Positions 841 through 41,684 of a stretch of 64,000 nucleotides of DNA are shown in pieces (position 1 is the stretch's first letter; each line of letters begins with the position of its first letter). The notes beneath the pieces are model-generated. The model was not told the DNA's origin. It saw nothing but the letters and a program-made list of their open reading frames with translations, and made no database searches. The DNA lies in contig CAXHJY010001105.1 in assembly GCA_964016885.1 (NCBI GenBank), forward strand, positions 310,001 through 374,000. The letters are read 5' to 3'. Source of the DNA: Eledone cirrhosa. Lineage: Eukaryota. The translations under genes were made by a program, and so were the position numbers.

Positions 841-917
841 GGTAGTGTGGCTTAGTGGTTAATATTCGGTTCATGATCGTAAGGTTGTGAGTTCGATTCC
901 CAGACAAGGCAGAACGT
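841..917 (+). mobile_element. tRNA-derived SINE head with RNA polymerase III internal promoter
   Basis: A box TGGCTTAGTGG at 848-858 and B box GTTCGATTCC at 891-900 with tRNA-like spacing. It runs directly into TGTGTCCTTGAGCAAG, a CORE-SINE-like motif, and has no acceptor-stem 3' half. Confidence 0.85.
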
Positions 918-3900
918 TGTGTCCTTGAGCAAGAGACTTTATTTCACATTGCACTCCAGTCCACTGTGTCCTTGAGCAAGAGACTTTATTTCACATTGAA
1001 CTCCAGTCCACTGTGTCCTTGAGCAAGAGACTTTATTTCACATTGCACTCCAGTCCACTGTGTCCTTGAGCAAGAGACTTTATTTCAATTGCACTCCAGT
1101 CCACTGTGTCCTTGAGCAAGAGACTATATTTCACATTGCACTCCAGTCCACTGTGTCCTTGAGCAAGAGACTTTATTTCACATTGCACTCCAGTCCACTG
1201 TGTCCTTGAGCAAGAGACTTTATTTCACATTGCACTCCAGTCCACTGTGTCCTTGAGCAAGACACTTTATTTCACATTGCACTCCAGTCCACTGTGTCCT
1301 TGAGCAAGACACTTTATTTCACATTGCACTCCAGTCCACTGTGTCCTGGAGCAAGACACTTTATGCCACATTGCACTCCAGTCCACTGTGTCCATGAGCA
1401 AGACACTTTATTTCACATTGCACTCCAGTCCACTGTGTCCTTGAGCAAGAGACTTTATTTCACATTGCACTCCAGTCCACTGTGTCCTTGAGCAAGACAC
1501 TTTATTTCACATTGCACTCCAGTCCACTGTGTCCTTGAGCAAGACACTTTATTTCACATTGCACTCCAGTCCACTGTGTCCTGGAGCAAGAGACTTTATT
1601 TCACATTGCACTCCGCTCCACTGTGTCCTTGAGCAAGAGACTTTATTTCACATTGCACTCCAGTCCACTGTGTCCTTGAGCAAGACACTTTATTTCACAT
1701 TGCACTCCAGTCCACTGTGTCCTTGAGCAAGACACTTTATTTCACATTGCACTCCAGTCCACTGTGTCCTTGAGCAAGACACTTTATTTCACATTGCACT
1801 CCAGTCCACTGTGTCCTTGAGCAAGAGACTTTATTTCACATTGCACTCCAGTCCACTGTGTCCTTGAGCAAGAGACTTTATTTCACATTGCACTCCAGTC
1901 CACTGTGTCCTTGAACAAGAGACTTTATTTCACATTGCACTCCAGTCCACTGTGTCCTTGAGCAAGAGACTTTATTTCACATTGCACTCCAGTCCACTGT
2001 GTCCTTGAGCAAGAGACTTTATTTCACATTGCACTCCAGTCCACTGTGTCCTTGAGCAAGACACTTTATTTCACATTGCACTCCTGTCCACTGTGTCCTT
2101 GAGCAAGAGACTTTATTTCACATTGCACTCCAGTCCACTGTGTCCTTGAGCAAGAGACTTTATTTCACATTGCACTCCAGTCCACTGTGTCCTTGAGCAA
2201 GAGACTTTATTTCACATTGCACTCCAGTCCACTGTGTCCTTGAGCAAGAGACTTTATTTCACATTGCACTCCAGTCCACTGTGTCCTTGAGCAAGAGACT
2301 TTATTTCACATTGCACTCCAGTCCACTGTGTCCTTGAGCAAGACACTTTATTTCACATTGCACTCCAGTCCACAGTGTCCTTGAGCAAGACACTTTAATT
2401 CACATTGCACACCAGTCCACTGTGTCCTTGAGCAAGACACTTTATTTCACATTGCACTCCAGTCCACTGTGTCCTTGAGCAAGAGACTTTATTTCACATT
2501 GCACTCCAGTCCACTGTGTCCTTGAGCAAGACACTTTATTTCACATTGCACTCCAGTCCACTGTGTCCTTGAGCAAGACACTTTATTTCACATTGCACTC
2601 CAGTCCACTGTGTCCTTGAGCAAGAGACTTTATTTCACATTGCACTCCAGTCCACTGTGTCCTTGAGCAAGAGACTTTATTTCACATTGCACTCCAGTCC
2701 ACTGTGTCCTTGAGCAAGAGACTTTATTTCACATTGCACTCCAGTCCACTGTGTCCTTGAGCAAGAGACATTATTTCACATTGCACTCCAGTCCACTGTG
2801 TCCTTGAGCAAGAGACTTTATTTCACATTGCACTCCAGTCCACTGTGTCCTTGAGCAAGAGACTTTATTTCACATTGCACTCCAGTCCACTGTGTCCTTG
2901 AGCAAGAGACTTTATTTCACATTGCACTCCAGTCCACTGTGTCCTTGAGCAAGAGACTTTATTTCACATTGCACTCCAGTCCACTGTGTCCTTGAGCAAG
3001 AGACTTCATTTCACATTGCACTCCAGTCCACTGTGTCCTTGAGCAAGACACTTTATTTCACATGGCACTCCAGTCCACTGTGTCCTTGAGCAAGAGACTT
3101 TATTTCACATTGCACTCCAGTCCACTGTGTCCTTGAGCAAGAGACTTTATTTCACATTGCACTCCAGTCCACTGTGTCCTTGAGCAAGACACTTTATTTC
3201 ACATTGCACTCCAATCCACTGTGTCCTTGAGCAAGACACTTTATTTCACATTGCACTCCAGTCCACTGTGTCCTTGAGCAAGAGACTTTATTTCACATTG
3301 CACTCCAGTCCACTGTGTCCTTGAGCAAGACACTTTATTTCACATTGCACTCCAGTCCACTGTGTCCTTGAGCAAGAGACTTTATTTCACATTGCACTCC
3401 AGTCCACTGTGTCCTTGAGCAAGAGACTTTATTTCACATTGCACTCCAGTCCACTGTGTCCTTGAGCAAGACACTTTATTTCACATTGCACTCCAGTCCA
3501 CTGTGTCCTTGAGCAAGAGACTTTATTTCACATTGCACTCCAGTCCACTGTGTCCTTGAGCAAGAGACTTTATTTCACATTGCACTCCAGTCCACTGTGT
3601 CCTTGAGCAAGACACTTTATTTCACATTGCACTCCAGTCCACTGTGTCCTTGAGCAAGAGACTTTATTTCACATTGCACTCCAGTCCACTGTGTCCTTGA
3701 GCAAGAGACTTTATTTCACATTGCACTCCAGTCCACTGTGTCCTTGAGCAAGACACTTTATTTCACATTGCACTCCAGTCCACTGTGTCCTTGAGCAAGA
3801 GACTTTATTTCACATTGCATTCCAGTCCACTGTGTCCTTGAGCAAGAGACTTTATTTCACATTGCACTCCAGTCCACTGTGTCCTTGAGCAAGAGACTTT

Positions 3901-6900
3901 ATTTCACATTGCACTCCAGTCCACTGTGTCCTTGAGCAAGAGACTTTATTTCACATTGCACTCCAGTCCACTGTGTCCTTGAGCAAGAGACTTTATTTCA
4001 CATTGCACTCCAGTCCACTGTGTCCTTGAGCAAGAGACTTTATTTCACATTGCACTCCAGTCCACTGTGTCCTTGAGCAAGAGACTTTATTTCACATTGC
4101 ACTCCAGTCCACTGTGTCCTTGAGCAAGACACTTTATTTCACATTGCACTCCAGTCCACTGTGTCCTTGAGCAAGAGACTTTATTTCACATTGCACTCCA
4201 GTCCACTGTGTCCTTGAGCAAGAGACTTTATTTCACATTGCACTCCAGTCCACTGTGTCCTTGAGCAAGACACTTTATTTCACATTGCACTCCAGTCCAC
4301 TGTGTCCTTGAGCAAGAGACTTTATTTCACATTGCACTCCAGTCCACTGTGTCCTTGAGCAAGAGACTTTATTTCACATTGCACTCCAGTCCACTGTGTC
4401 CTTGAGCAAGACACTTTATTTCACATTGCACTCCAGTCCACTGTGTCCTTGAGCAAGAGACTTTATTTCACATTGCACTCCAGTCCACTGTGTCCTTGAG
4501 CAAGAGACTTTATTTCACATTGCACTCCAGTCCACTGTGTCCTTGAGCAAGACACTTTATTTCACATTGCACTCCAGTCCACTGTGTCCTTGAGCAAGAG
4601 ACTTTATTTCACATTGCACTCCAGTCCACTGTGTCCTTGAGCAAGAGACTTTATTTCACATTGCACTCCAGTCCACTGTGTCCTTGAGCAAGACACTTTA
4701 TTTCACATTGCACTACAGTCCACTGTGTCCTTGAGCAAGAGACTTTATTTCACATTGCACTCCAGTCCACTGTGTCCTTGAGCAAGAGACTTTATTTCAC
4801 ATTGCACTCCAGTCCACTGTGTCCTTGAGCAAGACACTTTATTTCACACTGAACTCCAGTCCACTGTGTCCTTGAGCAAGAGACTTTATTTCACATTGCA
4901 CTCCAGTCCACTGTGTCCTTGAGCAAGAGACTTTATTTCACATTGCACTCCAGTCCACTGTGTCCTTGAGCAAGACACTTTATTTCACATTGCACTCCAG
5001 TCCACTGTGTCCTTGAGCAAGAGACTTTATTTCACATTGCACTCCAGTCCACTGTGTCCTTGAGCAAGACACTTTATTTCACATTGCACTCCAGTCCACT
5101 GTGTCCTTGAGCAAGAGACTTTATTTCACATTGCACTCCAGTCCACTGTGTCCTTGAGCAAGAGACTTTATTTCAATTGCACTCCAGTCCACTGTGTCCT
5201 TGAGCAAGAGACTTTATTTCACATTGCACTCCAGTCCATTGTGTCCTTGAGCAAGAGACTTTATTTCACATTGCACTCCAGTCCACTGTGTCCTTGAGCA
5301 AGAGACTTTATTTCACATTGCACTCCAGTCCACTGTGTCCTTGAGCAAGAGACTTTATTTCACATTGCACTCCAGTCCACTGTGTCCTTGAGCAAGACAC
5401 TTTATGCCACATTGCACTCCAGTCCACTGTGTCCTTGAGCAAGACACTTTATTTCACATTGCACTCCAGTCCACTGTGTCCTTGAGCAAGAGACTTTATT
5501 TCACATTGCACTCCAGTCCACTGTGTCCTTGAGCAAGACACTTTATTTCACATTGCACTCCAGTCCACTGCGTCCTTGAGCAAGAGACTTTATTTCAATT
5601 GCACTCCAGTCCACTGTGTCCTTGAGCAAGACACTTTATTTCACATTGCACTCCAGTCCACTGTGTCCTTGAGCAAGACACTTTATTTCACATTGCACTC
5701 CAGTCCACTGTGTCCTTGAGCAAGAGACTTTATTTCACATTGCACTCCAGTCCACTGTGTCCTTGAGCAAGACACTTTATTTCACATTGCACTCCAGTCC
5801 ACTGTGTCCTTGAGCAAGAGACTTTATTTCACATTGAACTCCAGTCCACTGTGTCCTTGAGCAAGAGACTTTATTTCACATTGCACTCCAGTCCACTGTG
5901 TCCTTGAGCAAGAGACTTTATTTCAATTGCACTCCAGTCCACTGTGTCCTTGAGCAAGAGACTATATTTCACATTGCACTCCAGTCCACTGTGTCCTTGA
6001 GCAAGAGACTTTATTTCACATTGCACTCCAGTCCACTGTGTCCTTGAGCAAGAGACTTTATTTCACATTGCACTCCAGTCCGCTGTGTCCTTGAGCAAGA
6101 CACTTTATTTCACATTGCACTCCAGTCCACTGTGTCCTTGAGCAAGAGACTTTATTTCACATTGCACTCCAGTCCACTGTGTCCTTGAGCAAGACACTTT
6201 ATTTCACATTGCACTCCAGTCCACTGTGTCCTTGAGCAAGACACTTTATTTCACATTGCACTCCAGTCCACTGTGTCCTTGAGCAAGACACTTTATTTCA
6301 ATTGCACTCCAGTCCACTGTGTCCTTGAGCAAGAGACTTTATTTCACATTGCACTCCAGTCCACTGTGTCCTTGAGCAAGAGACTTTATTTCACATTGCA
6401 CTCCAGTCCACTGTGTCCTTGAGCAAGAGACTTTATTTCACATTGCACTCCAGTCCACTGTGTCCTTGAGCAAGAGACTTTATTTCAATTGCACTCCAGT
6501 CCACTGTGTCCTTGAGCAAGAGACTTTATTTCACATTGCACTCCAGTCCACTGTGTCCTTGAGCAAGAGACTTTATTTCACATTGCACTCCAGTCCACTG
6601 TGTCCTTGAGCAAGAGACTTTATTTCACATTGCACTCCAGTCCACTGTGTCCTTGAGCAAGACACTTTATGCCACATTGCACTCCAGTCCATTGTGTCCA
6701 TGAGCAAGACACTTTATTTCACATTGCACTCCAGTCCACTGTGTCCTTGAGCAAGAGACTTTATTTCACATTGCACTCCAGTCCACTGTGTCCTTGAGCA
6801 AGACACTTTATTTCACATTGCACTCCAGTCCACTGTGTCCTTGAGCAAGACACTTTATTTCACATTGCACTCCAGTCCACTGTGTCCTGGAGCAAGAGAC

Positions 6901-9900
6901 TTTATTTCACATTGCACACCAGTCCACTGTGTCCTTGAGCAAGAGACTTTATTTCACATTGCACTCCAGTCCACTGTGTCCTTGAGCAAGACACTTTATT
7001 TCACATTGCACTCCAGTCCACTGTGTCCTTGAGCAAGACACTTTATTTCACATTGCACTCCAGTCCACTGTGTCCTTGAGCAAGACACTTTATTTCACAT
7101 TGCACTCCAGTCCACTGTGTCCTTGAGCAAGACACTTTATTTCACATTGCACTCCAGTCCACTGTGTCCTTGAGCAAGAGACTTTATTTCACATTGCACT
7201 CCAGTCCACTGTGTCCTTGAGCAAGAGACTTTATTTCACATTGCACTCCAGTCCACTGTGTCCTTGAGCAAGACACTTTATTTCACATTGCACTCCAGTC
7301 CACTGTGTCCTTGAGCAAGAGACTTTATTTCACATTGCACTCCAGTCCACTGTCTCCTTGAGCAAGACACTTTATTTCACATTGCACTCCAGTCCACTGT
7401 GTCCTTGAGCAAGACACTTTATTTCACATTGCACTCCAGTCCACTGTGTCCTTGAGCAAGACACTTTATTTCAATTGCACTCCAGTCCACTGTGTCCTTG
7501 AGCAAGAGACTTTATTTCACATTGCACTCCAGTCCACTGTGTCCTTGAGCAAGAGACTTTATTTCACATTGCACTCCAGTCCACTGTGTCCTTGAGCAAG
7601 AGACTTTATTTCACATTGCACTCCAGTCCACTGTGTCCTTGAGCAAGAGACTTTATTTCAATTGCACTCCAGTCCACTGTGTCCTTGAGCAAGAGACTTT
7701 ATTTCACATTGCACTCCAGTCCACTGTGTCCTTGAGCAAGAGACTTTATTTCACATTGCACTCCAGTCCACTGTGTCCTTGAGCAAGAGACTTTATTTCA
7801 CATTGCACTCCAGTCCACTGTGTCCTTGAGCAAGAGACTTTATTTCCCATTGCACTCCAGTCCACTGTGTCCTTGAGCAAGACACTTTATGCCACATTGC
7901 ACTCCAGTCCACTGTGTCCATGAGCAAGACACTTTATTTCACATTGCACTCCAGTCCACTGTGTCCTTGAGCAAGAGACTTTATTTCACATTGCACTCCA
8001 GTCCACTGTGTCCTTGAGCAAGACACTTTATTTCACATTGCACTCCAGTCCACTGTGTCCTTGAGCAAGACACTTTATTTCACATTGCACTCCAGTCCAC
8101 TGTGTCCTGGAGCAAGAGACTTTATTTCACATTGCACTCCACTCCACTGTGTCCTTGAGCAAGAGACTTTATTTCACATTGCACTCCAGTCCACTGTGTC
8201 CTTGAGCAAGACACTTTATTTCACATTGCACTCCAGTCCACTGTGTCCTTGAGCAAGACACTTTATTTCACATTGCACTCCAGTCCACTGTGTCCTTGAG
8301 CAAGACACTTTATTTCACATTGCACTCCAGTCCACTGTGTCCTTGAGCAAGAGACTTTATTTCACATTGCACTCCAGTCCACTGTGTCCTTGAGCAAGAG
8401 ACTTTATTTCACATTGCACTCCAGTCCACTGTGTCCTTGAACAAGAGACTTTATTTCACATTGCACTCCAGTCCACTGTGTCCTTGAACAAGACACTTTA
8501 TTTCACATTGCACTCCAGTCCACTGTGTCCTTGAGCAAGAGACATTATTTCACATTGCACTCCAGTCCACTGTGTCCTTGAGCAAGAGACTTTATTTCAC
8601 ATTGCACTCCAGTCCACTGTGTCCTTGAGCAAGACACTTTATTTCACATTGCACTCCAGTCCACTGTGTCCTTGAGCAAGACACTTTATTTCACATTGCA
8701 CTCCAGTCCACTGTGTCCTTGAGCAAGAGACTTTATTTCACATTGCACTCCAGTCCACTGTGTCCTTGAGCAAGAGACTTTATTTCACATTGCACTCCAG
8801 TCCACTGTGTCCTTGAGCAAGAGACTTTATTTCACATTGCACTCCAGTCCACTGTGTCCTTGAGCAAGAGACTTTATTTCACATTGCACTCCAGTCCACT
8901 GTGTCCTTGAGCAAGACACTTTATTTCACATTGCACTCCAGTCCACTGTGTCCTTGAGCAAGACACTTTAATTCACATTGCACACCAGTCCACTGTGTCC
9001 TTGAGCAAGACACTTTATTTCACATTGCACTCCAGTCCACTGTGTCCTTGAGCAAGAGACTTTATTTCACATTGCACTCCAGTCCACTGTGTCCTTGAGC
9101 AAGACACTTTATTTCACATTGCACTCCAGTCCACTGTGTCCTTGAGCAAGACACTTTATTTCACATTGCACTCCAGTCCACTGTGTCCTTGAGCAAGAGA
9201 CTTTATTTCACATTGCACTCCAGTCCACTGTGTCCTTGAGCAAGAGACTTTATTTCACATTGCACTCCAGTCCACTGTGTCCTTGAGCAAGAGACTTTAT
9301 TTCACATTGCACTCCAGTCCACTGTGTCCTTGAGCAAGAGACTTTATTTCACATTGCACTCCAGTCCACTGTGTCCTTGAGCAAGAGACTTTATTTCACA
9401 TTGCACTCCAGTCCACTGTGTCCTTGAGCAAGAGACTTTATTTCACATTGGAACTCCAGTCCACTGTGTCCTTGAGCAAGAGACTTTATTTCACATTGCA
9501 CTCCAGTCCACTGTGTCCTTGAGCAAGAGACTTTATTTCACATTGCACTCCAGTCCACTGTGTCCTTGAGCAAGAGACTTTATTTCACATTGCACTCCAG
9601 TCCACTGTGTCCTTGAGCAAGACACTTTATTTCACATGGCACTCCAGTCCACTGTGTCCTTGAGCAAGAGACTTTATTTCACATTGCACTCCAGTCCACT
9701 GTGTCCTTGAGCAAGAGACTTTATTTCACATTGCACTCCAGTCCACTGTGTCCTTGAGCAAGACACTTTATTTCACATTGCACTCCAATCCACTGTGTCC
9801 TTGAGCAAGACACTTTATTTCACATTGCACTCCAGTCCACTGTGTCCTTGAGCAAGAGACTTTATTTCACATTGCACTCCAGTCCACTGTGTCCTTGAGC

Positions 9901-12900
9901 AAGACACTTTATTTCACATTGCACTCCAGTCCACTGTGTCCTTGAGCAAGAGACTTTATTTCACATTGCACTCCAGTCCACTGTGTCCTTGAGCAAGAGA
10001 CTTTATTTCACATTGCACTCCAGTCCACTGTGTCCTTGAGCAAGACACTTTATTTCACATTGCACTCCAGTCCACTGTGTCCTTGAGCAAGAGACTTTAT
10101 TTCACATTGCACTCCAGTCCACTCTGTCCTTGAGCAAGAGACTTTATTTCACATTGCACTCCAGTCCACTGTGTCCTTGAGCAAGACACTTTATTTCACA
10201 TTGCACTCCAGTCCACTGTGTCCTTGAGCAAGAGACTTTATTTCACATTGCACTCCAGTCCACTGTGTCCTTGAGCAAGAGACTTTATTTCACATTGCAC
10301 TCCAGTCCACTGTGTCCTTGAGCAAGACACTTTATTTCACATTGCACTCCAGTCCACTGTGTCCTTGAGCAAGAGACTTTATTTCACATTGCATTCCAGT
10401 CCACTGTGTCCTTGAGCAAGAGACTTTATTTCACATTGCACTCCAGTCCACTGTGTCCTTGAGCAAGAGACTTTATTTCACATTGCACTCCAGTCCACTG
10501 TGTCCTTGAGCAAGAGACTTTATTTCACATTGCACTCCAGTCCACTGTGTCCTTGAGCAAGAGACTTTATTTCACATTGCACTCCAGTCCACTGTGTCCT
10601 TGAGCAAGAGACTTTATTTCACATTGCACTCCAGTCCACTGTGTCCTTGAGCAAGAGACTTTATTTCACATTGCACTCCAGTCCACTGTGTCCTTGAGCA
10701 AGACACTTTATTTCATATTGCACTCCAGTCCACTGTGTCCTTGAGCAAGAGACTTTATTTCACATTGCACTCCAGTCCACTGTGTCCTTGAGCAAGAGAC
10801 TTTATTTCACATTGCACTCCAGTCCACTGTGTCCTTGAGCAAGCCACTTTATTTCACATTGCACTCCAGTCCACTGTGTCCTTGAGCAAGAGACTTTATT
10901 TCACATTGCACTCCAGTCCACTGTGTCCTTGAGCAAGAGACTTTATTTCACATTGCACTCCACTCCACTGTGTCCTTGAGCAAGACACTTTATTTCACAT
11001 TGCACTCCAGTCGACTGTGTCCTTGAGCAAGACACTTTATTTCACATTGCACTCCAGTCCACTGTGTCCTTGAGCAAGAGACTTTATTTCACATTGCACT
11101 CCAGTCCACTGTGTCCTTGAGCAAGACACTTTATTTCACATTGCACTCCAGTCCACTGTGTCCTTGAGCAAGAGACTTTATTTCACATTGCACTCCAGTC
11201 CACTGTGTCCTTGAGCAAGAGACTTTATTTCACATTGCACTCCAGTCCACTGTGTCCTTGAGCAAGACACTTTATTTCACATTGCACTCCAGTCCACTGT
11301 GTCCTTGAGCAAGAGACTTTATTTCACATTGCACTCCAGTCCACTGTGTCCTTGAGCAAGAGACTTTATTTCACATTGCACTCCAGTCCACTGTGTCCTT
11401 GAGCAAGACACTTTATTTCACATTGAACTCCAGTCCACTGTGTCCTTGAGCAAGAGACTTTATTTCACATTGCACTCCAGTCCACTGTGTCCTTGAGCAA
11501 GAGACTTTATTTCACATTGCACTCCAGTCCACTGTGTCCTTGAGCAAGACACTTTATTTCACATTGCACTCCAGTCCACTGTGTCCTTGAGCAAGAGACT
11601 TTATTTCACATTGCACTCCAGTCCACTGTGTCCTTGAGCAAGAGACTTTATTTCACATTGCACTCCAGTCCACTGTGTCCTTGAGCAAGAGACTTTATTT
11701 CACATTGCACTCCAGTCCACTGTGTCCTTGAGCATGAGACTTTATTTCAATTGCACTCCAGTCCACTGTGTCCTTGAGCAAGAGACTTTATTTCACATTG
11801 CACTCCAGTCCATTGTGTCCTTAAGCAAGAGACTTTATTTCACATTGCACTCCAGTCCACTGTGTCCTTGAGCAAGAGACTTTATTTCACATTGCACTCC
11901 AGTCCACTGTGTCCTTGAGCAAGAGACTTTATTTCACATTGCACTCCAGTCCACTGTGTCCTTGAGCAAGACACTTTATGCCACATTGCACTCCAGTCCA
12001 CTGTGTCCTTGAGCAAGACACTTTATTTCACATTGCACTCCAGTCCACTGTGTCCTTGAGCAAGAGACTTTATTTCACATTGCACTCCAGTCCACTGTGT
12101 CCTTGAGCAAGACACTTTATTTCACATTGCACTCCAGTCCACTGTGTCCTTGAGCAAGACACTTTATTTCACATTGCACTCCAGTCCACGGTGTCCTTGA
12201 GCAAGAGACTTTATTTCACATTGCACTCCAGTCCACTGTGTCCTTGAGCAAGAGACTTTATTTCACATTGCACTCCAATCCACTGTGTCCTTGAGCAAGA
12301 GACTTTATTTCACATTGCACTCCAGTCCACTGTGTCCTTGAGCAAGAGACTTTATTTCACATTGCACTCCAGTCCACTGTGTCCTTGAGCAAGAGACTTT
12401 ATTTCACGTTTCACTCCAGTCCACTGTGTCCTTGAGCAAGACACTTTATTTCACATTGCACTCCAGTCCACTGTGTCCTTGAGCAAGACACTTTAATTCA
12501 CATTGCACACCAGTCCACTGTGTCCTTGAGCAAGACACTTTATTTCACATTGCACTCCAGTCCACTGTGTCCTTGAGCAAGAGACTTTATTTCACATTGC
12601 ACTCCAGTCCACTGTGTCCTTGAGCAAGACACTTTATGCCACATTGCACTCCAGTCCACTGTGTCCTTGAGCAAGACACTTTATTTCACATTGCACTCCA
12701 GTCCACTGTGTCCTTGAGCAAGAGACTTTATTTCACATTGCACTCCAGTCCACTGTGTCCTTGAGCAAGACACTTTATTTCACATTGCACTCCAGTCCAC
12801 TGTGTCCTTGAGCAAGACACTTTATTTCACATTGCACTCCAGTCCACGGTGTCCTTGAGCAAGAGACTTTATTTCACATTGCACTCCAGTCCACTGTGTC

Positions 12901-15900
12901 CTTGAGCAAGAGACTTTATTTCACATTGCACTCCAGTCCACTGTGTCCTTGAGCAAGAGACTTTATTTCACATTGCACTCCAGTCCACTGTGTCCTTGAG
13001 CAAGAGACTTTATTTCACATTGCCCTCCAGTCCACTGTGTCCTTGAGCAAGAGACTTTATTTCACATTTCACTCCAGTCCACTGTGTCCTTGAGCAAGAC
13101 ACTTTATTTCACATTGCACTCCAGTCCACTGTGTCCTTGAGCAAGACACTTTAATTCACATTGCACACCAGTCCACTGTGTCCTTGAGCAAGACACTTTA
13201 TTTCACATTGCACTCCAGTCCACTGTGTCCTTGAGCAAGAGACTTTATTTCACATTGCACTCCAGTCCACTGTGTCCTTGAGCAAGACACTTTATTTCAC
13301 ATTGCACTCCAGTCCACTGTGTCCTTGAGCAAGACACTTTATTTCACATTGCACTCCAGTCCACTGTGTCCTTGAGCAAGAGACTTTATTTCACATTGCA
13401 CTCCAGTCCACTGTGTCCTTGAGCAAGAGACTTTATTTCACATTGCACTCCAGTCCACTGTGTCCTTGAGCAAGAGACTTTATTTCACATTGCACTCCAG
13501 TCCACTGTGTCCTTGAGCAAGAGACTTTATTTCACATTGCACTCCAGTCCACTGTGTCCTTGAGCAAGAGACTTTATTTCACATTGCACTCCAGTCCACT
13601 GTGTCCTTGAGCAAGAGACTTTATTTCACATTGCACTCCAGTCCACTGTGTCCTTGAGCAAGAGACTTTATTTCACATTGCACTCCAGTCCACTGTGTCC
13701 TTGAGCAAGAGACTTTATTTCACATTGCACTCCAGTCCACTGTGTCCTTGAGCAAGAGACTTTATTTCACATTGCACTCCAGTCCACTGTGTCCTTGAGC
13801 AAGACACTTTATTTCACATGGCACTCCAGTCCACTGTGTCCTTGAGCAAGAGACTTTATTTCACATTGCACTCCAGTCCACTGTGTCCTTGAGCAACAGA
13901 CTTTATTTCACATTGCAATCCAGTCCACTGTGTCCTTGAGCAAGAGACTTTATTTCACATTGCACTCCAGTCCACTGTGTCCTTGAGCAAGACACTTTAT
14001 TTCACATTGCACTCCAGTCCACTGTGTCCTTGAGCAAGACACTTTATTTCACATTGCACTCCAGTCCACTGTGTCCTTGAGCAAGACACTTTATTTCACA
14101 TTGCACTCCAGTCCACTGTGTCCTTGAGCAAGAGACTTTATTTCACATTGCACTCCAGTCCACTGTGTCCTTGAGCAAGAGACTTTATTTCACATTTCAC
14201 TCCAGTCCACTGTGTCCTTGAGCAAGACACTTTATTTCACATTGCACTCCAGTCCACTGTGTCCTTGAGCAAGAGACTTTATTTCACATTGCACTCCAGT
14301 CCACTGTGTCCTTGAGCAAGAGACTTTATTTCACATTGCACTCCAGTCCACTGTGTCCTTGAGCAAGACACTTTATTTCACATTGCACTCCAGTCCACTG
14401 TGTCCTTGAGCAAGAGACTTTATTTCACATTGCACTCCAGTCCACTGTGTCCTTGAGCAAGAGACTTTATTTCACATTGCACTCCAGTCCACTGTGTCCT
14501 TGAGCAAGACACTTTATTTCACATTGCACTCCAGTCCACTGTGTCCTTGAGCAAGAGACTTTATTTCACATTGCACTCCAGTCCACTGTGTCCTTGAGCA
14601 AGAGACTTTATTTCACATTGCACTCCAGTCCACTGTGTCCTTGAGCAAGAGACTTTATTTCACATTGCACTCCAGTCCACTGTGTCCTTGAGCAAGAGAC
14701 TTTATTTCACATTGCACTCCAGTCCACTGTGTCCTTGAGCAAGAGACTTTATTTCACATTGCACTCCAGTCCACTGTGTCCTTGAGCAAGAGACTTTATT
14801 TCACATTGCACTCCAGTCCACTGTGTCCTTGAGCAAGAGACTTTATTTCACATTGCACTCCAGTCCACTGTGTCCTTGAGCAAGAGACTTTATTTCACAT
14901 TGCACTCCAGTCCACTGTGTCCTTGAGCAAGAGACTTTATTTCACATTGCACTCCAGTCCACTGTGTCCTTGAGCAAGACACTTTATTTCACATTGCACT
15001 CCAGTCCACTGTGTCCTTGAGCAAGACACTTTATTTCACATTGCACTCCAGTCCACTGTGTCCTTGAGCAAGAGACTTTATTTCACATTGCACTCCAGTC
15101 CACTGTGTCCTTGAGCAAGACACTTTATTTCACATTGCACTCCAGTCCACTGTGTCCTTGAGCAAGACACTTTATTTCACATTGCACTCCAGTCCACTGT
15201 GTCCTTGAGCAAGAGACTTTATTTCACATTGCACTCCAGTCCACTGTGTCCTTGAGCAAGACACTTTATTTCACATTGCACTCCAGTCCACTGTGTCCTT
15301 GAGCAAGAGACTTTATTTCACATTGCACTCCAGTCCACTGTGTCCTTGAGCAAGACACTTTATTTCACATTGCACTCCAGTCCACTGTGTCCTTGAGCAA
15401 GACACTTTATTTCACATTGCACTCCAGTCCACTGTGTCCTTGAGCAAGAGACTTTATTTCACATTGCACTCCAGTCCACTGTGTCCTTGAGCAAGACACT
15501 TTATTTCACATTGCACTCCAGTCCACTGTGTCCTTGAGCAAGACACTTTATTTCACATTGAACTCCAGTCCACTGTGTCCTTGAGCAAGAGACTTTATTT
15601 CACATTGCACTCCAGTCCACTGTGTCCTTGAGCAAGAGACTTTATTTCACATTGCACTCCAGTCCACTGTGTCCTTGAGCAAGACACTTTATTTCACATT
15701 GCACTCCAGTCCACTGTGTCCTTGAGCAAGAGACTTTATTTCACATTGCACTCCAGTCCACTGTGTCCTTGAGGAAGAGACTTTATTTCACATTGCACTC
15801 CAGTCCACTGTGTCCTTGAGCAAGAGACTTTATTTCACATTGCACTCCCGTCCACTGTGTCCTTGAGCAAGAGACTTTATTTCAATTGCACTCCAGTCCA

Positions 15901-18900
15901 CTGTGTCCTTGAGCAAGAGACTTTATTTCACATTGCACTCCAGTCCATTGTGTCCTTGAGCAAGAGACTTTATTTCACATTGCACTCCAGTCCACTGTGT
16001 CCTTGAGCAAGAGACTTTATTTCACATTGCACTCCAGTCCACTGTGTCCTTGAGCAAGAGACTTTATTTCACATTGCACTCCAGTCCACTGTGTCCTTGA
16101 GCAAGACACTTTATGCCACATTGCACTCCAGTCCACTGTGTCCTTGACCAAGACACTTTATTTCACATTGCACTCCAGTCCACTGTGTCCTTGAGCAAGA
16201 GACTTTATTTCACATTGCACTCCAGTCCACTGTGTCCTTGAGCAAGACACTTCATTTCACATTGCACTCCAGTCCACTGTGTCCTTGAGCAAGACACTTT
16301 ATTTCACATTGCACTCCAGTCCACTGTGTCCTGGAGCAAGAGAATTTATTTCACATTGCACTCCAGTCCACTGTGTCCTTGAGCAAGAGACTTTATTTCA
16401 CATTGCACTCCAGTCCACTGTGTCCTTCAGCAAGACACTTTATTTCACATTGCACTCCAGTCCACTGTGTCCTTGAGCAAGACACTTTATTTCACATTGC
16501 ACTCCAGTCCACTGTGTCCTTCAGCAAGAGACTTTATTTCACATTGCACTCCAGTCCACTGTGTCCTTGAGCAAGAGACTTTATTTCACATTGCACTCCA
16601 GTCCACTGTGTCCTTGAGCAAGAGACTTTATTTCACAATGCACTCCACTCCACTGTGTCCTTGAGCAAGATACGTTATTTCACATTGCACTTCAGTCCAC
16701 TGTGTCCTTGAGCAAGATACGTTGTTTCACATTGCACTCCAGTCCACTGTGTCCTTGAGCAAGATAATTTATTTCACATTGCACTCCAGTACACTGTGTC
16801 CTTGAGCAAGACATTTTATTTCACATTGCACTCCAGTCCACTGTGTCCTTGAGCAAGATACGTTGTTTCACATTGCACTCCAGTCCACTGTGTCCTTGAG
16901 CAAGATAATTTATTTCACATTGCACTCCAGTCCACTGTGTCCTTGAGCAAGACATTTTATTTCACATTGCACTCCAGTCCACTGTGTCCTTGAGCAAGAT
17001 ACGTTATTTCACATTGCACTTCAGTCCACTGTGTCCTTGAGCAAGATACGTTATTTCACATTGCACTCCAGTCCACTGTGTCCTTGAGCAAGACACTTTA
17101 TTTCACATTGCACTCCAGTCCACTGTGTCCTTGAGCAAGACACTTTATTTCACATTGCACTTCAGTCCACTGTGTCCTTGAGCAAGACACTTTATTTCAC
17201 ATTGCACTCCAGTCCACTGTGTCCTTGAGCAAGAGACTTTATTTCACATTGCACTCCAGTCCACTGTGTCCTTGAGCAAGACACTTTATTTCACATTGCA
17301 CTCCAGTCCACTGTGTCCTTGAGCAAGAGACTTTATTTCACATTGCACTCCAGTCCACTGTGTCCTTGAGCAAGACACTTTATTTCACATTGCACTCCAG
17401 TCCACTGTGTCCTTGAGCAAGACACTTTATTTCACATTGCACTCCAGTCCACTGTGTCCTTGAGCAAGAGACTTTATTTCACATTGCACTCCAGTCCACT
17501 GTGTCCTTGAGCAAGAGACTTTATTTCACATTGCACTCCAGTCCACTGTGTCCTTGAGCAAGACACTTTATTTCACATTGAACTCCAGTCCACTGTGTCC
17601 TTGAGCAAGAGACTTTATTTCACATTGCACTCCAGTCCACTGTGTCCTTGAGCAAGAGACTTTATTTCACATTGCACTCCAGTCCACTGTGTCCTTGAGC
17701 AAGACACTTTATTTCACATTGCACTCCAGTCCACTGTGTCCTTGAGCAAGAGACTTTATTTCACATTGCACTCCAGTCCACTGTGTCCTTGAGGAAGAGA
17801 CTTTATTTCACATTGCACTCCAGTCCACTGTGTCCTTGAGCAAGAGACTTTATTTCACATTGCACTCCCGTCCACTGTGTCCTTGAGCAAGAGACTTTAT
17901 TTCAATTGCACTCCAGTCCACTGTGTCCTTGAGCAAGAGACTTTATTTCACATTGCACTCCAGTCCATTGTGTCCTTGAGCAAGAGACTTTATTTCACAT
18001 TGCACTCCAGTCCACTGTGTCCTTGAGCAAGAGACTTTATTTCACATTGCACTCCAGTCCACTGTGTCCTTGAGCAAGAGACTTTATTTCACATTGCACT
18101 CCAGTCCACTGTGTCCTTGAGCAAGACACTTTATGCCACATTGCACTCCAGTCCACTGTGTCCTTGACCAAGACACTTTATTTCACATTGCACTCCAGTC
18201 CACTGTGTCCTTGAGCAAGAGACTTTATTTCACATTGCACTCCAGTCCACTGTGTCCTTGAGCAAGACACTTCATTTCACATTGCACTCCAGTCCACTGT
18301 GTCCTTGAGCAAGACACTTTATTTCACATTGCACTCCAGTCCACTGTGTCCTGGAGCAAGAGACTTTATTTCACATTGCACTCCAGTCCACTGTGTCCTT
18401 GAGCAAGAGACTTTATTTCACATTGCACTCCAGTCCACTGTGTCCTTCAGCAAGACACTTTATTTCACATTGCACTCCAGTCCACTGTGTCCTTGAGCAA
18501 GACACTTTATTTCACATTGCACTCCAGTCCACTGTGTCCTTCAGCAAGAGACTTTATTTCACATTGCACTCCAGTCCACTGTGTCCTTGAGCAAGAGACT
18601 TTATTTCACATTGCACTCCAGTCCACTGTGTCCTTGAGCAAGAGACTTTATTTCACAATGCACTCCACTCCACTGTGTCCTTGAGCAAGATACGTTATTT
18701 CACATTGCACTTCAGTCCACTGTGTCCTTGAGCAAGATACGTTGTTTCACATTACACTCCAGTCCACTGTGTCCTTGAGCAAGATAATTTATTTCACATT
18801 GCACTCCAGTCCACTGTGTCCTTGAGCAAGACATTTTATTTCACATTGCACTCCAGTCCACTGTGTCCTTGAGCAAGATACGTTATTTCACATTGCACTT

Positions 18901-33900: not shown

Positions 33901-36900
33901 CATATTGCACTCCACTCCACTGTCCTTGAGCAAGATACTTTATTTCACATTGCACTCCAGTCCACTGTGTCCTTGAGCAAGATACGTTATTTCACATTGC
34001 ACTCCAGTCCACTGTGTCCTTGAGCAAGATACGTTATTTCACATTGCACTCCACTCCACTGTGTCCTTGAGCAAGACACTTTATTTCACATTGCACTCCA
34101 GTCCACTGTGTCCTTGAGCAAGACACTTTATTTCACATTGCACTCCAGTCCACTGTGTCCTTGAGCAAGAGACTTTATTTCACATTGCACTCCAGTCCAC
34201 TGTGTCCTTGAGCAAGACATTTTATTTCACATTGCACTTCAGTCCACTTTGTCCTTGAGCAAGATACGTTATTTCACATTGCACTCCACACCACTGTGTC
34301 CTTGAGCAAGATACTTTATTTCACATTGCACTCCAGTCCACTGTGTCCTTGAGCAAGATACGTTATTTCACATTGCACTCCAGTCCACTGTGTCCTTGAG
34401 CAAGATACGTTATTTCACAGTGCACTCCAGTCCACTGTGTCCTTGAGCAAGATAATTTATTTCACATTGCACTCCAGTCCACTGTGTCCTTGAGCAAGAC
34501 ATTTTATTTCACATTGCACTCCAGTCCACTGTGTCCTTGAGCAAGATACTTTATTTCACATTGCACTCCAGTCCACTGTGTCCTTGAGCAAGACATTTTA
34601 TTTTACATTGCACTCCAGTCCACTGTGTCCTTGAACAATACATTTTATTTCACATTGCACTCCAGACCACTGTGTCCTTGAGCAAGACACTTTATTTCAC
34701 ATTGCACTCCAGTCCACTGTGTCCTTGAGCAAGACACTTTATTTCACATTGCACTCCAGTCCACTGTGTCCTTGAGCAAGAGACTTTATTTCACATTGCA
34801 CTCTAGTCCACTGTGTCCTTGAGCAAAACACTTTATTTCACATTGCACTCCAGTCAACTGTATACTTGAGCAAGATACTTTATTTCAAATTACACTCCAG
34901 TCCACTGTGTCCTTGAGCAAGACGTTTTATTTCACATTGCACTCCACTCCACTGTGTCCTTGAGCAAGATACTTTATTTCACATTGCACTCCACTCCACT
35001 GTGTCCTTGAGCAAGATACGTTATTTCACATTGCACTCCAGTCCACTGTGTGCTTGAGCAAGATAATTTATTTCACATTGCACTCCAGTCCACTGTGTCC
35101 TTGAGCAAAACACTTTATTTCACATTGCACTCCAGTCCACTGTATCCTTGAGCAAGATACTTTATTTCAAATTGCACTCCAGTCCACTGTGTCCTTGAGC
35201 AAGACATTTTATTTCACATTGCACTCCACTCCACTGTGTCCTTGAGCAAGATACTTTATTTCACAATGCACTCCACTCCACTGTGTCCTTGAGCAAGATA
35301 CGTTATTTCACATTGCACTTCAGTCCACTGTGTCCTTGAGCAAGATACGTTGTTTCACATTGCACTCCAGTCCACTGTGTCCTTGAGCAAGATAATTTAT
35401 TTCACATTGCACTCCAGTTCACTGTGTCCTTGAGCAAGACATTTTATTTCACATTGCACTCCAGTCCACTGTGTCCTTGAGCAAGATACGTTATTTCACA
35501 TTGCACTTCAGTCCACTGTGTCCTTGAGCAAGATACGTTATTTCACATTGCACTCCAGTCCACTGTGTCCTTGAGCAAGACACTTTATTTCACATTACAC
35601 TTCAGTCCACTGTGTCCTTGAGCAAGACACTTTATTTCACATTGCACTTCAGTCCACTGTGTCCTTGAGCAAGACACTTTATTTCACATTGCACTCCAGT
35701 CCACTGTGTCCTTGAGCAAGACACTTTATTACACATTGCACTCTAGTCCACTGTGTCCTTGAGCAAGATACTTTATTTCACATTGCACTCCAGTCCACTG
35801 TGTCCTTGAGCAAGAGACTTTATTTCACATTGCACTCCAGTCCACTGTGTCCTTGAGCAAGAGTCTTTATTTCACATTGCGCTCCAGTCCACTGTGTCCT
35901 TGAGCAAGAGACTTTATTTCACATTGCACTCCAGTCCACTGTGTCCTTGAGCAAGACATTTTATTTCACATTGCACTCCAGTCCACTGTGTCCTTGAACA
36001 AGATACTTTATTTCCCATTGCACTCCAGTCCAGTGTCCTTGAGCAATACATTTTATTTCACATTGCACTCCAGTCCACTGTGTCCTTGAGCAAGACACTT
36101 TATTTCACATTGCACTCCAGTCCACTGTGTCCTTGAGCAAGAGACTTTATTTCACATTGCACTCCAGTCCACTGTGTCCTTGTGCAAGAGACTTTATTTC
36201 ACATTGCACTCCAGTCCACTGTGTCCTTGAGCAAGAGACTTTATTACACATTGCACTCCAGTCCACTGTGTCCTTGAGCAAGATACGTTATTTCATATTG
36301 CACTCCACTCCACTGTCCTTGAGCAAGATACTTTATTTCACATTGCACTCCAGTCCACTGTGTCCTTGAGCAAGATACGTTATTTCACATTGCACTCCAG
36401 TCCACTGTGTCCTTGAGCAAGATACGTTATTTCACATTGCACTCCACTCCACTGTGTCCTTGAGCAAGATACTTTATTTCACATTGCACTCCAGTCCACT
36501 GTGTCCTTGAGCAAGACACTTTATTTCACATTGCACTCCAGTCCACTGTGTCCTTGAGCAAGAGACTTTATTTCACATTGCACTCCAGTCCACTGTGTCC
36601 TTGAGCAAGACATTTTATTTCACATTGCACTTCAGTCCACTTTGTCCTTGAGCAAGATACGTTATTTCACATTGCACTCCACACCACTGTGTCCTTGAGC
36701 AAGATACTTTATTTCACATTGCACTCCAGTCCACTGTGTCCTTGAGCAAGATACGTTATTTCACATTGCACTCCAGTCCACTGTGTCCTTGAGCAAGATA
36801 CGTTATTTCACAGTGCACTCCAGTCCACTGTGTCCTTGAGCAAGATAATTTATTTCACATTGCACTCCAGTCCACTGTGTCCTTGAGCAAGACATTTTAT

Positions 36901-39900
36901 TTCACATTGCACTCCAGTCCACTGTGTCCTTGAGCAAGATACTTTATTTCACATTGCACTCCAGTCCACTGTGTCCTTGAGCAAGACATTTTATTTTACA
37001 TTGCACTCCAGTCCACTGTGTCCTTGAACAATACATTTTATTTCACATTGCACTCCAGTCCACTGTGTCCTTGAGCAAGACACTTTATTTCACATTGCAC
37101 TCCAGTCCACTGTGTCCTTGAGCAAGACACTTTATTTCACATTGCACTCCAGTCCACTGTGTCCTTGAGCAAGAGACTTTATTTCACATTGCACTCTAGT
37201 CCACTGTGTCCTTGAGCAAAACACTTTATTTCACATTGCACTCCAGTCAACTGTATACTTGAGCAAGATACTTTATTTCAAATTGCACTCCAGTCCACTG
37301 TGTCCTTGAGCAAGACATTTTATTTCACATTGCACTCCACTCCACTGTGTCCTTGAGCAAGATACTTTATTTCACATTGCACTCCACTCCACTGTGTCCT
37401 TGAGCAAGATACGTTATTTCACATTGCACTCCAGTCCACTGTGTGCTTGAGCAAGATAATTTATTTCACATTGCACTCCAGTCCACTGTGTCCTTGAGCA
37501 AAACACTTTATTTCACATTGCACTCCAGTCCACTGTATCCTTGAGCAAGATACTTTATTTCAAATTGCACTCCAGTCCACTGTGTCCTTGAGCAAGACAT
37601 TTTATTTCACATTGCACTCCACTCCACTGTGTCCTTGAGCAAGATACTTTATTTCACAATGCACTCCACTCCACTGTGTCCTTGAGCAAGATACGTTATT
37701 TCACATTGCACTTCAGTCCACTGTGTCCTTGAGCAAGATACGTTGTTTCACATTGCACTCCAGTCCACTGTGTCCTTGAGCAAGATAATTTATTTCACAT
37801 TGCACTCCAGTCCACTGTGTCCTTGAGCAAGACATTTTATTTCACATTGCACTCCAGTCCACTGTGTCCTTGAGCAAGATACGTTATTTCACATTGCACT
37901 TCAGTCCACTGTGTCCTTGAGCAAGATACGTTATTTCACATTGCACTCCAGTCCACTGTGTCCTTGAGCAAGACACTTTATTTCACATTGCACTCCAGTC
38001 CACTGTGTCCTTGAGCAAGACACTTTATTTCACATTGCACTTCAGTCCACTGTGTCCTTGAGCAAGACACTTTATTTCACATTGCACTCCAGTCCACTGT
38101 GTCCTTGAGCAAGACACTTTATTACACATTGCACTCTAGTCCACTGTGTCCTTGAGCAAGATACTTTATTTCACATTGCACTCCAGTCCACTGTGTCCTT
38201 GAGCAAGAGACTTTATTTCACATTGCACTCCAGTCCACTGTGTCCTTGAGCAAGAGTCTTTATTTCACATTGCGCTCCAGTCCACTGTGTCCTTGAGCAA
38301 GAGACTTTATTTCACATTGCACTCCAGTCCACTGTGTCCTTGAGCAAGACATTTTATTTCACATTGCACTCCAGTCCACTGTGTCCTTGAACAAGATACT
38401 TTATTTCCCATTGCACTCCAGTCCAGTGTCCTTGAGCAATACATTTTATTTCACATTGCACTTCAGTCCACTGTGTCCTTGAGCAAGACACTTTATTTCA
38501 CATTGCACTCCATTCCACTGTGTCCTTGAGCAAGACACTTTATTTCACATTGTACTCCAGTCCACTGTGTCCTTGAGCAAGATACGTTATTTCACATTGC
38601 ACTTCAGTCCACTGTGTCCTTGAGCAAGACACTTTATTTCACATTGCACTCCACTCCACTGTGTCCTTGAGCAAGACACTTTATTTCACATTGCACTCCA
38701 GTCCACTGTGTCCTTGAGCAAGACACTTTATTACACATTGCACTCCAGTCCACTGTGTCTTTGAGCAAGATACTTTATTTCACATTGCACTCCAGTCTAC
38801 TGTATCCTTGAGTAAGACACTTTATTTCACATTGCACTCCAGTCTACTGTATCCTTGAGTAAGACACTTTATTTCACATTGCACTCCAGTCCACTGTGTC
38901 CTTGAGCAAGAGACTTTATTTCACATTGCACTCCAGTCCACTGTGTCCTTGAGCAAGACACTTTATTTCACATTGCACTCCAGTCCACTGTGTCCTTGAG
39001 CAAGATACGTTATTTCACATTGCACTCCAGTCCACTGTGTCCTTGAGCAAGACATTTTATTTCACATTGTACTCCAGTCCACTGTGTCCTTGAGCAAGAT
39101 ACTTTATTTCACATTGCACTCCAGTCCACTGTGTTCTTGAGCAAGACATTTTATTTCACATTGCACTCCAGTCCACTGTGTCCTTGAGCAAGATACTTTA
39201 TTTCATATTGCACTTCACTCCACTGTGTCCTTGAGCAAGATACTTTATTTCACATTGCACTCCAGTCCAGTGTCCTTGAGCAATACATTTTATTTCACAT
39301 TGCACTCCAGTCTACTGTGTCCTTGAGCAAGACACTTTATTTCACATTGCACTCCACTCCACTGTGTCCTTGAGCAAGAGACTTTATTTCACATTGCACT
39401 CCAGTCCACTGTGTCCTTGAGCAAGACACTTTATTTCACATTGCACTCCAGTTCACTGTGTCCTTGAACAGGACACTTTATTTCACATTGCACTCCAGTC
39501 CACCGTGTCCTTGAGCAAGACACTTTATTTCACATTGCACTCCACTCCACCGTGTCCTTGAGCAAGAGACTTTATTTCACATTGCACTCCAGTCCACTGT
39601 GTCCTTGAGCAAGACACTTTATTTCACATTGCACTCCAGACCACTGTGTCCTTGAGCAAGACACTTTATTTCACATTGCACTCCAGTCCACTGTGTCCTT
39701 GAGCAAGACACTTTATTTCACATTGCACTCCAGTCCACTGTGTCCTTGAGCAAGACACTTTATTTCACATTGCACTCCAGACCACCGTGTCCTTGAGCAA
39801 TACATTTTATTTCACATTGCACTCCAGTCCACTGTGTCCTTGAGCAAGACACTTTATTTCACATTGCACTCCAGTCCACTGTGTCCTTGAGCAAGACACT

Positions 39901-40322
39901 TTATTTTACATTGCACTCCAGTCCACTGTGTCTTTGAGCAAGACACTTTATTTCACATTGCACTCCAGTCCACTGTGTCCTTGAGCAAGACACTTTGTTT
40001 CACATTGCACTCCAGTCCACTGTGTCCTTGAGCAAGACACTTTATTTTACATTGCACTCCACTCCACTGTGTCCTTGAGCAAGACACTTTATTTCACATT
40101 GCACTCCAGTCCACTGTGTCCTTGAGCAAGACACTTTATTTCACATTGCACTCCAGACCACTGTGTCCTTGAGCAAGACACTTTATTTCACATTGCACTC
40201 CAGTCCACTGTGTCCTTGAGCAAGACACTTATTTCACATTGCACTCCAGTCCACTGTGTCCTTGAGCAAGACACTTTATTTCACATTGCACTCCAGACCA
40301 CTGTGTCCTTGAGCAAGACACT
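918..40322 (+). repeat. 47-bp tandem satellite (~838 copies) derived from the SINE central CORE-like domain
   Basis: Unit TGTGTCCTTGAGCAAGA(G/C)ACTTTATTTCACATTGCACTCCAGTCCAC repeats head-to-tail without interruption; 39405/47 is about 838. The first ~25 nt resemble the CORE-SINE motif TGTGACCTTGGGCAAGTCACTT (recalled consensus). Confidence 0.97.
16650..38460 (+). repeat. Higher-order repeat domain of the satellite (mostly 51-mer, 2393 bp; also 46-mer, 2158 bp)
   Basis: The variant monomer GAGTCTTT...TGCGCTCC has its GCGC at 19271, 21429, 23587, 25980, 28373, 30110, 32503, 33486, 35879 and 38272. Spacings are 2158, 2158, 2393, 2393, 1737, 2393, 983, 2393, 2393. 2393 = 51x47-4, consistent with the two 2-bp deletion monomers seen per unit. 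Confidence 0.9.
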
Positions 40323-40413
40323 CTCCCAGGTCAGTTTAATCGAGCAGACTTATGATCAAAGATGTTCCAGCGGTTGGATCAGGACTGACCTGGGGCTAAA
40401 CAACAACAACAAC
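40323..40413 (+). mobile_element. Probable SINE 3' end with (CAA)n tail, preceded by an inverted copy of the same segment
   Basis: Ends GACTGACCTGGGGCTAAACAACAACAACAAC. CCCAGGTCAGT (40325-40335) is the reverse complement of ACTGACCTGGG (40384-40394). Confidence 0.6.
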
Positions 40414-40451
40414 TGTGTATGTATGTATCAGTAGGATTCTCATTACTAGAT

Positions 40452-41552: not shown

Positions 41553-41684
41553 GGTAGGAAGGGAGGCAGTGTAAAAGGTGTCAAATTACGACCAATGAGA
41601 GAGCAGCTAGCAGTATCACGTGTCTAAGATGAATTACACAGGTTACCAGTCCAGTAGCTGACATTGTTAACACTGTTGTTTGAA

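Follow-up and report, generated by a model that had tools for sequence, protein, structure and literature searches.

A 39-kb tandem array built from a segment of a short interspersed element, probably grown in place behind its own tRNA-like head

A 64-kb window from Eledone cirrhosa (contig CAXHJY010001105.1, positions 310,001 to 374,000; the whole stretch of 64,000 nucleotides that was analyzed) contains a tandem array of a 47-bp unit, preceded by the tRNA-like head of a short interspersed element (SINE) and followed by a 91-bp segment that ends in (CAA)n. A search of the window with Tandem Repeats Finder (TRF) placed a single array at positions 918 to 40322, with a period of 47 bp, 839.4 copies, 95% matches, and 0% indels. 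Wrap-around alignment of all monomers divided the array into 839 full monomers of the 47-bp type and a final 21-bp partial copy; the full monomers were 47 bp (n = 798), 46 bp (n = 30), 45 bp (n = 10), or 48 bp (n = 1) long and fell into 125 distinct types, and no foreign insertion was found anywhere between 918 and 40322. An earlier interpretation made from the letters of this DNA alone, referred to here as the sequence-only reading, had described an uninterrupted run of about 838 copies, and this description was upheld. SINE-derived satellites are recognized from at least 4 tandem units (PMC10702118), compared to the 839 full monomers present here. No additional copy of the head, the monomer, or the end segment was found elsewhere in the window. 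Dimers and trimers of the monomer folded no better than shuffled sequences (z = 0.22, 0.85, and -0.28), and hairpin-driven instability was therefore rejected.

The head (841 to 917, plus strand) contained an A-box at 848 to 858 and a B-box at 891 to 899, both located by pattern search, and it joined monomer 1 without a spacer, just as the sequence-only reading had stated. These RNA polymerase III (Pol III) boxes within a tRNA-like head are what is expected of a tRNA-derived SINE. A profile constructed from 16 tRNA-like SINE heads on other animal-like contigs, with the search motif excluded, matched positions 840 to 910 (nhmmer; E = 1.8e-7), and this was the sole match in the non-array part of the window; the 16 heads were taken from 18 loci after two that lacked a head, L001 and the viral locus L018, had been dropped. 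The letters of the head were unlike those of most dispersed copies at 870, 874, 881, 886, 902, 906, and other sites. ARAGORN found no tRNA and Rfam found nothing at the head, as would be expected of a decayed SINE head, and the head had no tRNA fold (z = -0.2). The head at 841 to 917 belongs to an aged SINE copy.

Logan contigs were aligned to positions 701 to 1030 for four runs from four organisms (X1, X4, X5, and X6), with the small-share runs X2, X3, and X7 to X13 left out. Run X1 was the best match (0.79 of 33 words) and may be the assembly's own source. The numbers of aligned contigs were 6025 in X1, 3138 in X4, 377 in X5, and 8615 in X6, with many different flanks, which is the dispersed high copy number of a tRNA-derived SINE. 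In all four runs the head and the monomer were contiguous (approximately 845 to 952) in dispersed contigs, the longest pieces having differing flanks; the contiguity that the sequence-only reading had made its own point of possible refutation was thus borne out. This indicated that the monomer is SINE-derived, and it corresponds to the stretch of the SINE that lies immediately 3' of the head, so that the unit is a subsegment of a SINE dispersed in what may be the same genome (X1, the best match) and in three other organisms. Behind 952, 434 contigs in X1, 282 in X4, 67 in X5, and 391 in X6 departed from the window sequence. These contigs lacked two bases at 952 to 954 and, after the last monomer base, continued into TCAGCTG rather than into a new monomer, and loose ends at 951/952 occurred in all four runs; the loose ends comprise only 30 letters, and the true 3' end of the SINE family therefore lies out of view. 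Since the dispersed contigs skip the insertion at 952 to 954 and read on as nontandem sequence, the dispersed family has a 45-bp version of the unit, which keeps register with the head and shows C at column 18 and a CpG at columns 30 and 31. Monomer 1 (918 to 964, plus strand) accordingly consists of the 45-bp segment directly behind the head together with a 2-bp insertion (952 to 954), as delimited by the loose ends at 951/952 and by alignment with 16 other tRNA-head elements. The terminal unit of the array reaches one SINE terminus, the head at 841 to 917 being in register with monomer 1.

The monomer was also traced outside these runs. The 21-mer that opens the monomer had exact matches at 11 metagenome loci and 6 genome-collection loci, and at 16 of these 17 a tRNA-like head preceded the match at equal spacing, as judged by eye. 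A 19-mer from the monomer gave one viral match, without a head, and a 28-bp monomer pattern gave no locus in metagenome and viral contigs. Outside the 21-bp motif, similarity of the monomer to the foreign loci as a set was not significant (reached by 154 of 2000 shuffles). The contigs that carry the 21-mer look like animal DNA inside microbial collections. A GTDB genome titled as a Nitrospirales metagenome-assembled genome (MAG) held six tRNA-head SINE-like copies on five contigs (L012 to L017), which suggests animal host DNA in the bin. In run X6, a contig passed from monomer-like sequence directly into another SINE head (joint 1028 to 863), which hints at short tandems or nested copies in organism D, too.

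All 839 monomers of the array carried the 2-bp insertion, and the ancestral CACGTTG was found in none of them. Monomer 1 itself showed the derived states, i.e., the 2-bp insertion, A at column 31, and G at column 18. The X1 contigs included 32 (depth 23,046 of 328,591) whose alignment continued past 952 with a 2-bp gap at that point, and another 39 whose alignment began at 954 and was preceded by an ancestral-type loose end. Such gap contigs numbered zero in X4 and X6, where the dispersed copies were simply clipped at this point, and two in X5. Among the junction-crossing records of X5, records 22 and 23 had 2 gaps and record 24 had none, and a 77-letter record of the same run spanned the 47-bp junction with 1 differing letter. 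We infer that the gap contigs and loose-end contigs of X1 represent tandem junctions of an ancestral-type 45-bp unit outside the array, either at a second locus or on a different allele. The tandem duplication junction had 1 bp of microhomology (a T), which makes independent origins at identical breakpoints unlikely; therefore, the 45-bp and 47-bp tandems probably share one origin that is older than the insertion. At the second tandem junction (1009 to 1019/1020 to 1030), the summed depths were 67,128/53,007 in X1, 6.5/0 in X4, 8.5/4.3 in X5, and 57/39 in X6, compared to head depths at 888 to 898 of 124,055, 898,584, 521, and 1,044,622, respectively; these values sum overlapping contigs, and their use as copy numbers was rejected for that reason. 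Since junction depth was high only in X1 while head depth was higher in X4 and X6, large-scale amplification is largely confined to organism A (X1), one of the four.

The array fell into three domains on the plus strand. Domain I (monomers 1 to 335; 918 to 16653) had a mean pairwise identity of 97.7%, block-copy lags of up to 229 monomers, and no TTTT. Domain II (monomers 336 to 800; 16654 to 38471) had an identity of 93.7%, higher-order block lags of 43, 46, 51, 72, 88, 97, 139, and 211 monomers, and exact copies of up to 68 monomers. Domain III (monomers 801 to 839 and the 21-bp partial copy; 38472 to 40322) had an identity of 94.4%, was transition-rich, and lay outside the block parse. A greedy parse accounted for 693 of the 839 monomers as 15 block copies; their lags ranged from 3 to 229 monomers, and the largest block held 112 monomers. 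Exact duplicated blocks of 68, 50, and 40 monomers were present, and the longest compared with 7 to 12 monomers in 20 within-domain shuffles; most blocks were a few private changes apart and hierarchically nested. The array probably grew by block copying. Nested blocks of this kind are usually explained by unequal sister exchange or break-induced replication.

Private variants per monomer were most frequent in domain III (0.103) and almost absent from domain II (0.004), and the ancestral C at column 18 was present in 30 of the 39 monomers of domain III. Transitions made up 16 of 23 substitutions in domain III versus 13 of 44 in domain I, where the other 31 were transversions (Fisher P = 0.004), and C-to-T substitutions made up 11 of 23 versus 3 of 44 (Fisher P = 2e-4). 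The transition-rich spectrum of domain III indicated that the old-looking edge of the array is the one far from the head, and domain III is likely the oldest and least homogenized part. Linked double changes recurred in domain I. The difference in spectrum between domains I and III may reflect either a different mutational process or a consensus error.

At its far end the array stopped at monomer base 21 rather than 47, i.e., out of register with the SINE continuation. The end segment (40323 to 40413, no strand assigned) was an inverted-repeat fragment, bracketed by a perfect 11-bp inverted repeat (40325 to 40335 versus 40384 to 40394) that was reached by 5 of 2000 shuffles, with a fold z of -2.0; its (CAA)n run ended at 40413 in the same orientation as the head. 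A search of the window for the continuation found behind the monomer in the dispersed family, with as many as 3 mismatches allowed, gave no match, and no collinear 3' body followed the central domain at the array locus. Had the SINE merely been inflated in place, its last unit would be complete and the family continuation would follow; the end segment is therefore not an in-register SINE tail. The array does run into a (CAA)n-ended segment, as the sequence-only reading had noted, but the identification of this segment as the SINE's own tail was not confirmed, given the stop at base 21, the inverted repeat, and the missing continuation. A search for target site duplications spanning head to tail gave nothing longer than 5 bp and only low-complexity 4- to 5-mers, and a search around the end segment gave none. 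The end segment probably stems from a different repeat family and came to adjoin the array through a deletion; it may resemble the two ends of a separate family of octopus repeats. Classical twin priming was considered an unlikely origin for the segment because both arms appear to cover the same terminal sequence.

Together, these observations are best accommodated, in our judgment, by a SINE-derived satellite that grew in place from the SINE copy to which its own head belongs and whose 3' body was probably lost by deletion at the far end, a reading that we hold to be probable. Such a history would begin with what is seen at the locus, an aged SINE copy with a head and a contiguous central segment. 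Slippage or template switching would then have turned the 45 bp behind the head into a tandem duplication. One unit would have gained the 2-bp insertion and lost the CpG, and the resulting 47-bp variant would have replaced all others, monomer 1 included, while ancestral-type 45-bp tandems would survive outside the 39-kb array. The pattern of blocks described above suggests that blocks comprising as many as 112 monomers were thereafter copied again and again, as by unequal sister exchange or break-induced replication, which would have left a young homogeneous domain, a domain of higher-order repeats, and an old 3' edge. Finally, the break at monomer base 21 may reflect a cut in the array and its joining to an unrelated, (CAA)n-ended inverted-repeat fragment. 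The 39-kb array is probably not the only or the first array of its kind. No function is implied, and neutral array turnover is the default.

Several observations weigh against this overall explanation. The first monomer is already derived, and the monomers that look oldest are situated at the opposite end of the array from the head. Record 1 of X1 covered the flank and head from 701 to 900 with 1 differing letter and stopped there, and no listed contig bridged 917/918 at the array locus. At the other end, the 4-bp sequence TGTG occurred both at 837 to 840 and at 40414 to 40417, and when the end segment was compared with the downstream sequences of the 18 foreign loci, 6 of them gave scores approximately 2 to 3.5 standard deviations higher than shuffles, probably via a short shared motif. 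The (CAA)n piece could also be the family terminus after an internal deletion, the loose ends being only 30 letters long.

The derived state of monomer 1 and the remoteness of the oldest monomers from the head are fitted equally well by an array that was copied onto the head from elsewhere. According to this explanation, the satellite arose at another place and was transferred onto the SINE via the shared central segment by ectopic recombination or break-induced replication; the head would be a landing pad rather than a parent, and the same event would have removed the 3' body. The insertion in 839 of 839 monomers, the first included, is as such a transfer would leave it, and so are the oldest-looking domain farthest from the head, the ancestral-type 45-bp tandem junctions of X1 (the 32 gap contigs and the 39 loose-end contigs), and the coexistence in X5 of junction-crossing records with and without the 2 gaps. 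However, the head and monomer join exactly in register with the dispersed copies, CpG-type decay is present in both parts, crossover or conversion within monomer 1 would also account for its derived states, and the array locus might carry the 45-bp tandems on its second allele. We regard import as unlikely, while treating it as the most serious competitor to growth in place. These same observations leave unproven the proposal of the sequence-only reading that the founding locus of the satellite is preserved here, given that monomer 1 is derived and that 45-bp tandem junctions were found in X1 and in 0 of 839 monomers here.

That reading had gone further and proposed one intact SINE, with a head, an inflated center, and its own (CAA)n tail, as the unique founding locus of the satellite. 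The contiguity of head and monomer, the orientation of the (CAA)n end, and the TGTG on both sides are compatible with such an element. However, the array ends out of register, the in-register 3' body and family continuation are missing from the window, the end segment is a different fragment made up of an inverted-repeat pair, and sister 45-bp tandems exist outside the array, and the proposal is very unlikely to be correct. Similarly improbable is a real array whose length and block structure were substantially inflated by assembly error: the exact multi-kb blocks of 68, 50, and 40 monomers could partly be assembly duplications, the variants of domain I are transversion-rich, and the array length comes from the assembly, but the majority of blocks can be told apart by small numbers of private changes and are nested in a hierarchy, and the X1 tandem-junction depth exceeds that of the flank contig (5.3) by approximately four orders of magnitude, which requires hundreds of copies even when overlapping contigs are allowed for.

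The position of the head raised the possibility of transcription into the array. The first TTTT behind the head was at 16814 and no run of five T residues occurred anywhere in the array, and Pol III read-through of the first 16 kb would be formally possible. It is conceivable, but in our estimation very improbable, that the head is an active Pol III promoter and that sister arrays, the 45-bp variant for example, are seeded by RNAs that contain the head plus tandem units or by DNA copies of them. If this were true, a CORE-type SINE subfamily would both found and spread a satellite, and its 45-to-47-bp history would be traceable across related species. No RNA run was present among the listed matching runs. 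The lack of T4 in domain I is within chance, since only 3 of 141 substitutions create T4 and the observed 0 of 44 is unremarkable; the idea that selection had kept Pol III terminators out of this domain was rejected as unsupported.

The remainder of the window contained other repeats and relics. A 40-bp minisatellite of approximately 23 copies (TRF; 41684 to 43012), located 1.3 kb downstream of the array, decayed into (TA)n, and a 104-bp unit was repeated 4.3 times at 44989 to 45425 (TRF). Twelve candidate minimal hammerhead-like cores (CTGAnGA...GAAA) were found at 45722 to 45745, 46317 to 46357, 46685 to 46713, 46835 to 46863, 47591 to 47614, 48558 to 48594, 49437 to 49465, 53078 to 53120, 53672 to 53716, 59009 to 59033, 63627 to 63667, and 63774 to 63814. 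None of the twelve was among the 150 Rfam matches listed. Several of the cores were located in perfect palindromes, and in sequence they look like pseudo-long terminal repeat (pLTR) relics of Penelope-like elements. One perfect palindrome, at 46515 to 47033, had 259-bp arms that were 100% complementary and separated by a 1-bp spacer; others were present at approximately 48.0 to 48.3, 53.0 to 53.6, and 63.6 to 63.8 kb. The remains of a Helitron Rep/helicase-like coding sequence, degenerate and interrupted by stops and frameshifts, occupied 50826 to 52447; its best matches were approximately 50% identical, and the named ones, which were Helitron-like, included spider (51%) and Octopus sinensis (53%) proteins. 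Relics at 45750 to 46025 (plus strand) and 56567 to 56800 (minus strand) may derive from the C termini of long interspersed element (LINE) ORF2 proteins; protein searches gave only unnamed homologues.

Monomer 1 is putatively CORE-like, and the SINE of the array is a candidate member of the CORE-SINE superfamily, which is marked by a central domain of approximately 60 to 65 bp homologous to the CORE of MIR. The octopus elements OR1 and OR2 are listed as CORE-SINEs (PMC4824008 and PMC4758252), and PMC4824008 describes a 45-bp stretch at the 5' end of CORE as the sole part that all members share. This shared part equals in length the ancestral unit of the array; like the superfamily, the element has a tRNA head followed by a central segment common to distant animals. 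A 21-bp motif of the monomer was not found in the searched supplements of PMC5804259 and PMC9115989 (files 5 to 8 of the latter left out), and no earlier report of the repeat, or of a cephalopod or CORE-derived satellite, was found in the literature searched, a scope that excludes most subscription papers. Four further papers provided general background only (PMC13282606, PMC9659126, PMC3531059, and PMC9223172).

In bivalves, tRNA SINEs with conserved central domains (HCD-SINEs) form short tandem arrays (PMC11481361; Martelossi et al. 2024), one type of which, like the array described here, opens with a complete head followed by copies truncated at both ends. However, those arrays contain 2 to 15 units of near-SINE length, with a complete tail in the head-first type, in contrast to 839 short units and no family 3' body here. 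The closer parallel is with the squamate satellites sSat1 to sSat3 (PMC10702118; Vassetzky et al. 2023), which are tandem repeats of a SINE subsegment with a longer terminal unit that reaches one SINE end. Many such loci occur per genome and tend to be subtelomeric, with up to approximately 950 monomers in the glossy snake and over 1200 in the fence lizard; long loci are homogeneous (94% in a 320-monomer locus), have locus-specific subvariants, and coexist with several unit variants per genome, and loci with both SINE termini are an uncommon minority. The present array is alike in having an internal SINE segment as its unit, one SINE end kept, and a similar size. The novelty of the sequence-only reading is not supported, since head-keeping SINE-derived satellites of similar size had already been published for squamates.

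The differences from the squamate satellites lie in the unit and in its higher-order arrangement. The unit is 47 bp long here compared to approximately 70 to 290 nucleotides, it is situated wholly 3' of the B-box and includes no part of the promoter, unlike the squamate units, and it is organized in higher-order blocks of 43 to 229 monomers as opposed to alternating di- or trimers. No new mechanism or function is shown by the array. It is a real, large, head-keeping SINE-derived satellite, a further member of the class already described in squamates, and it extends this class, so far documented at such a size there, to a genome that looks like that of an invertebrate and to a unit that consists of the conserved central domain alone. 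Moreover, it offers a rare polarized history, from a dispersed 45-bp segment via a 45-bp tandem and a derived 47-bp tandem to nested expansion to 39 kb, and since the 45-to-47-bp steps are polarized and amplification is largely found in one of four organisms, the "library then amplification" model becomes testable at one orthologous locus.

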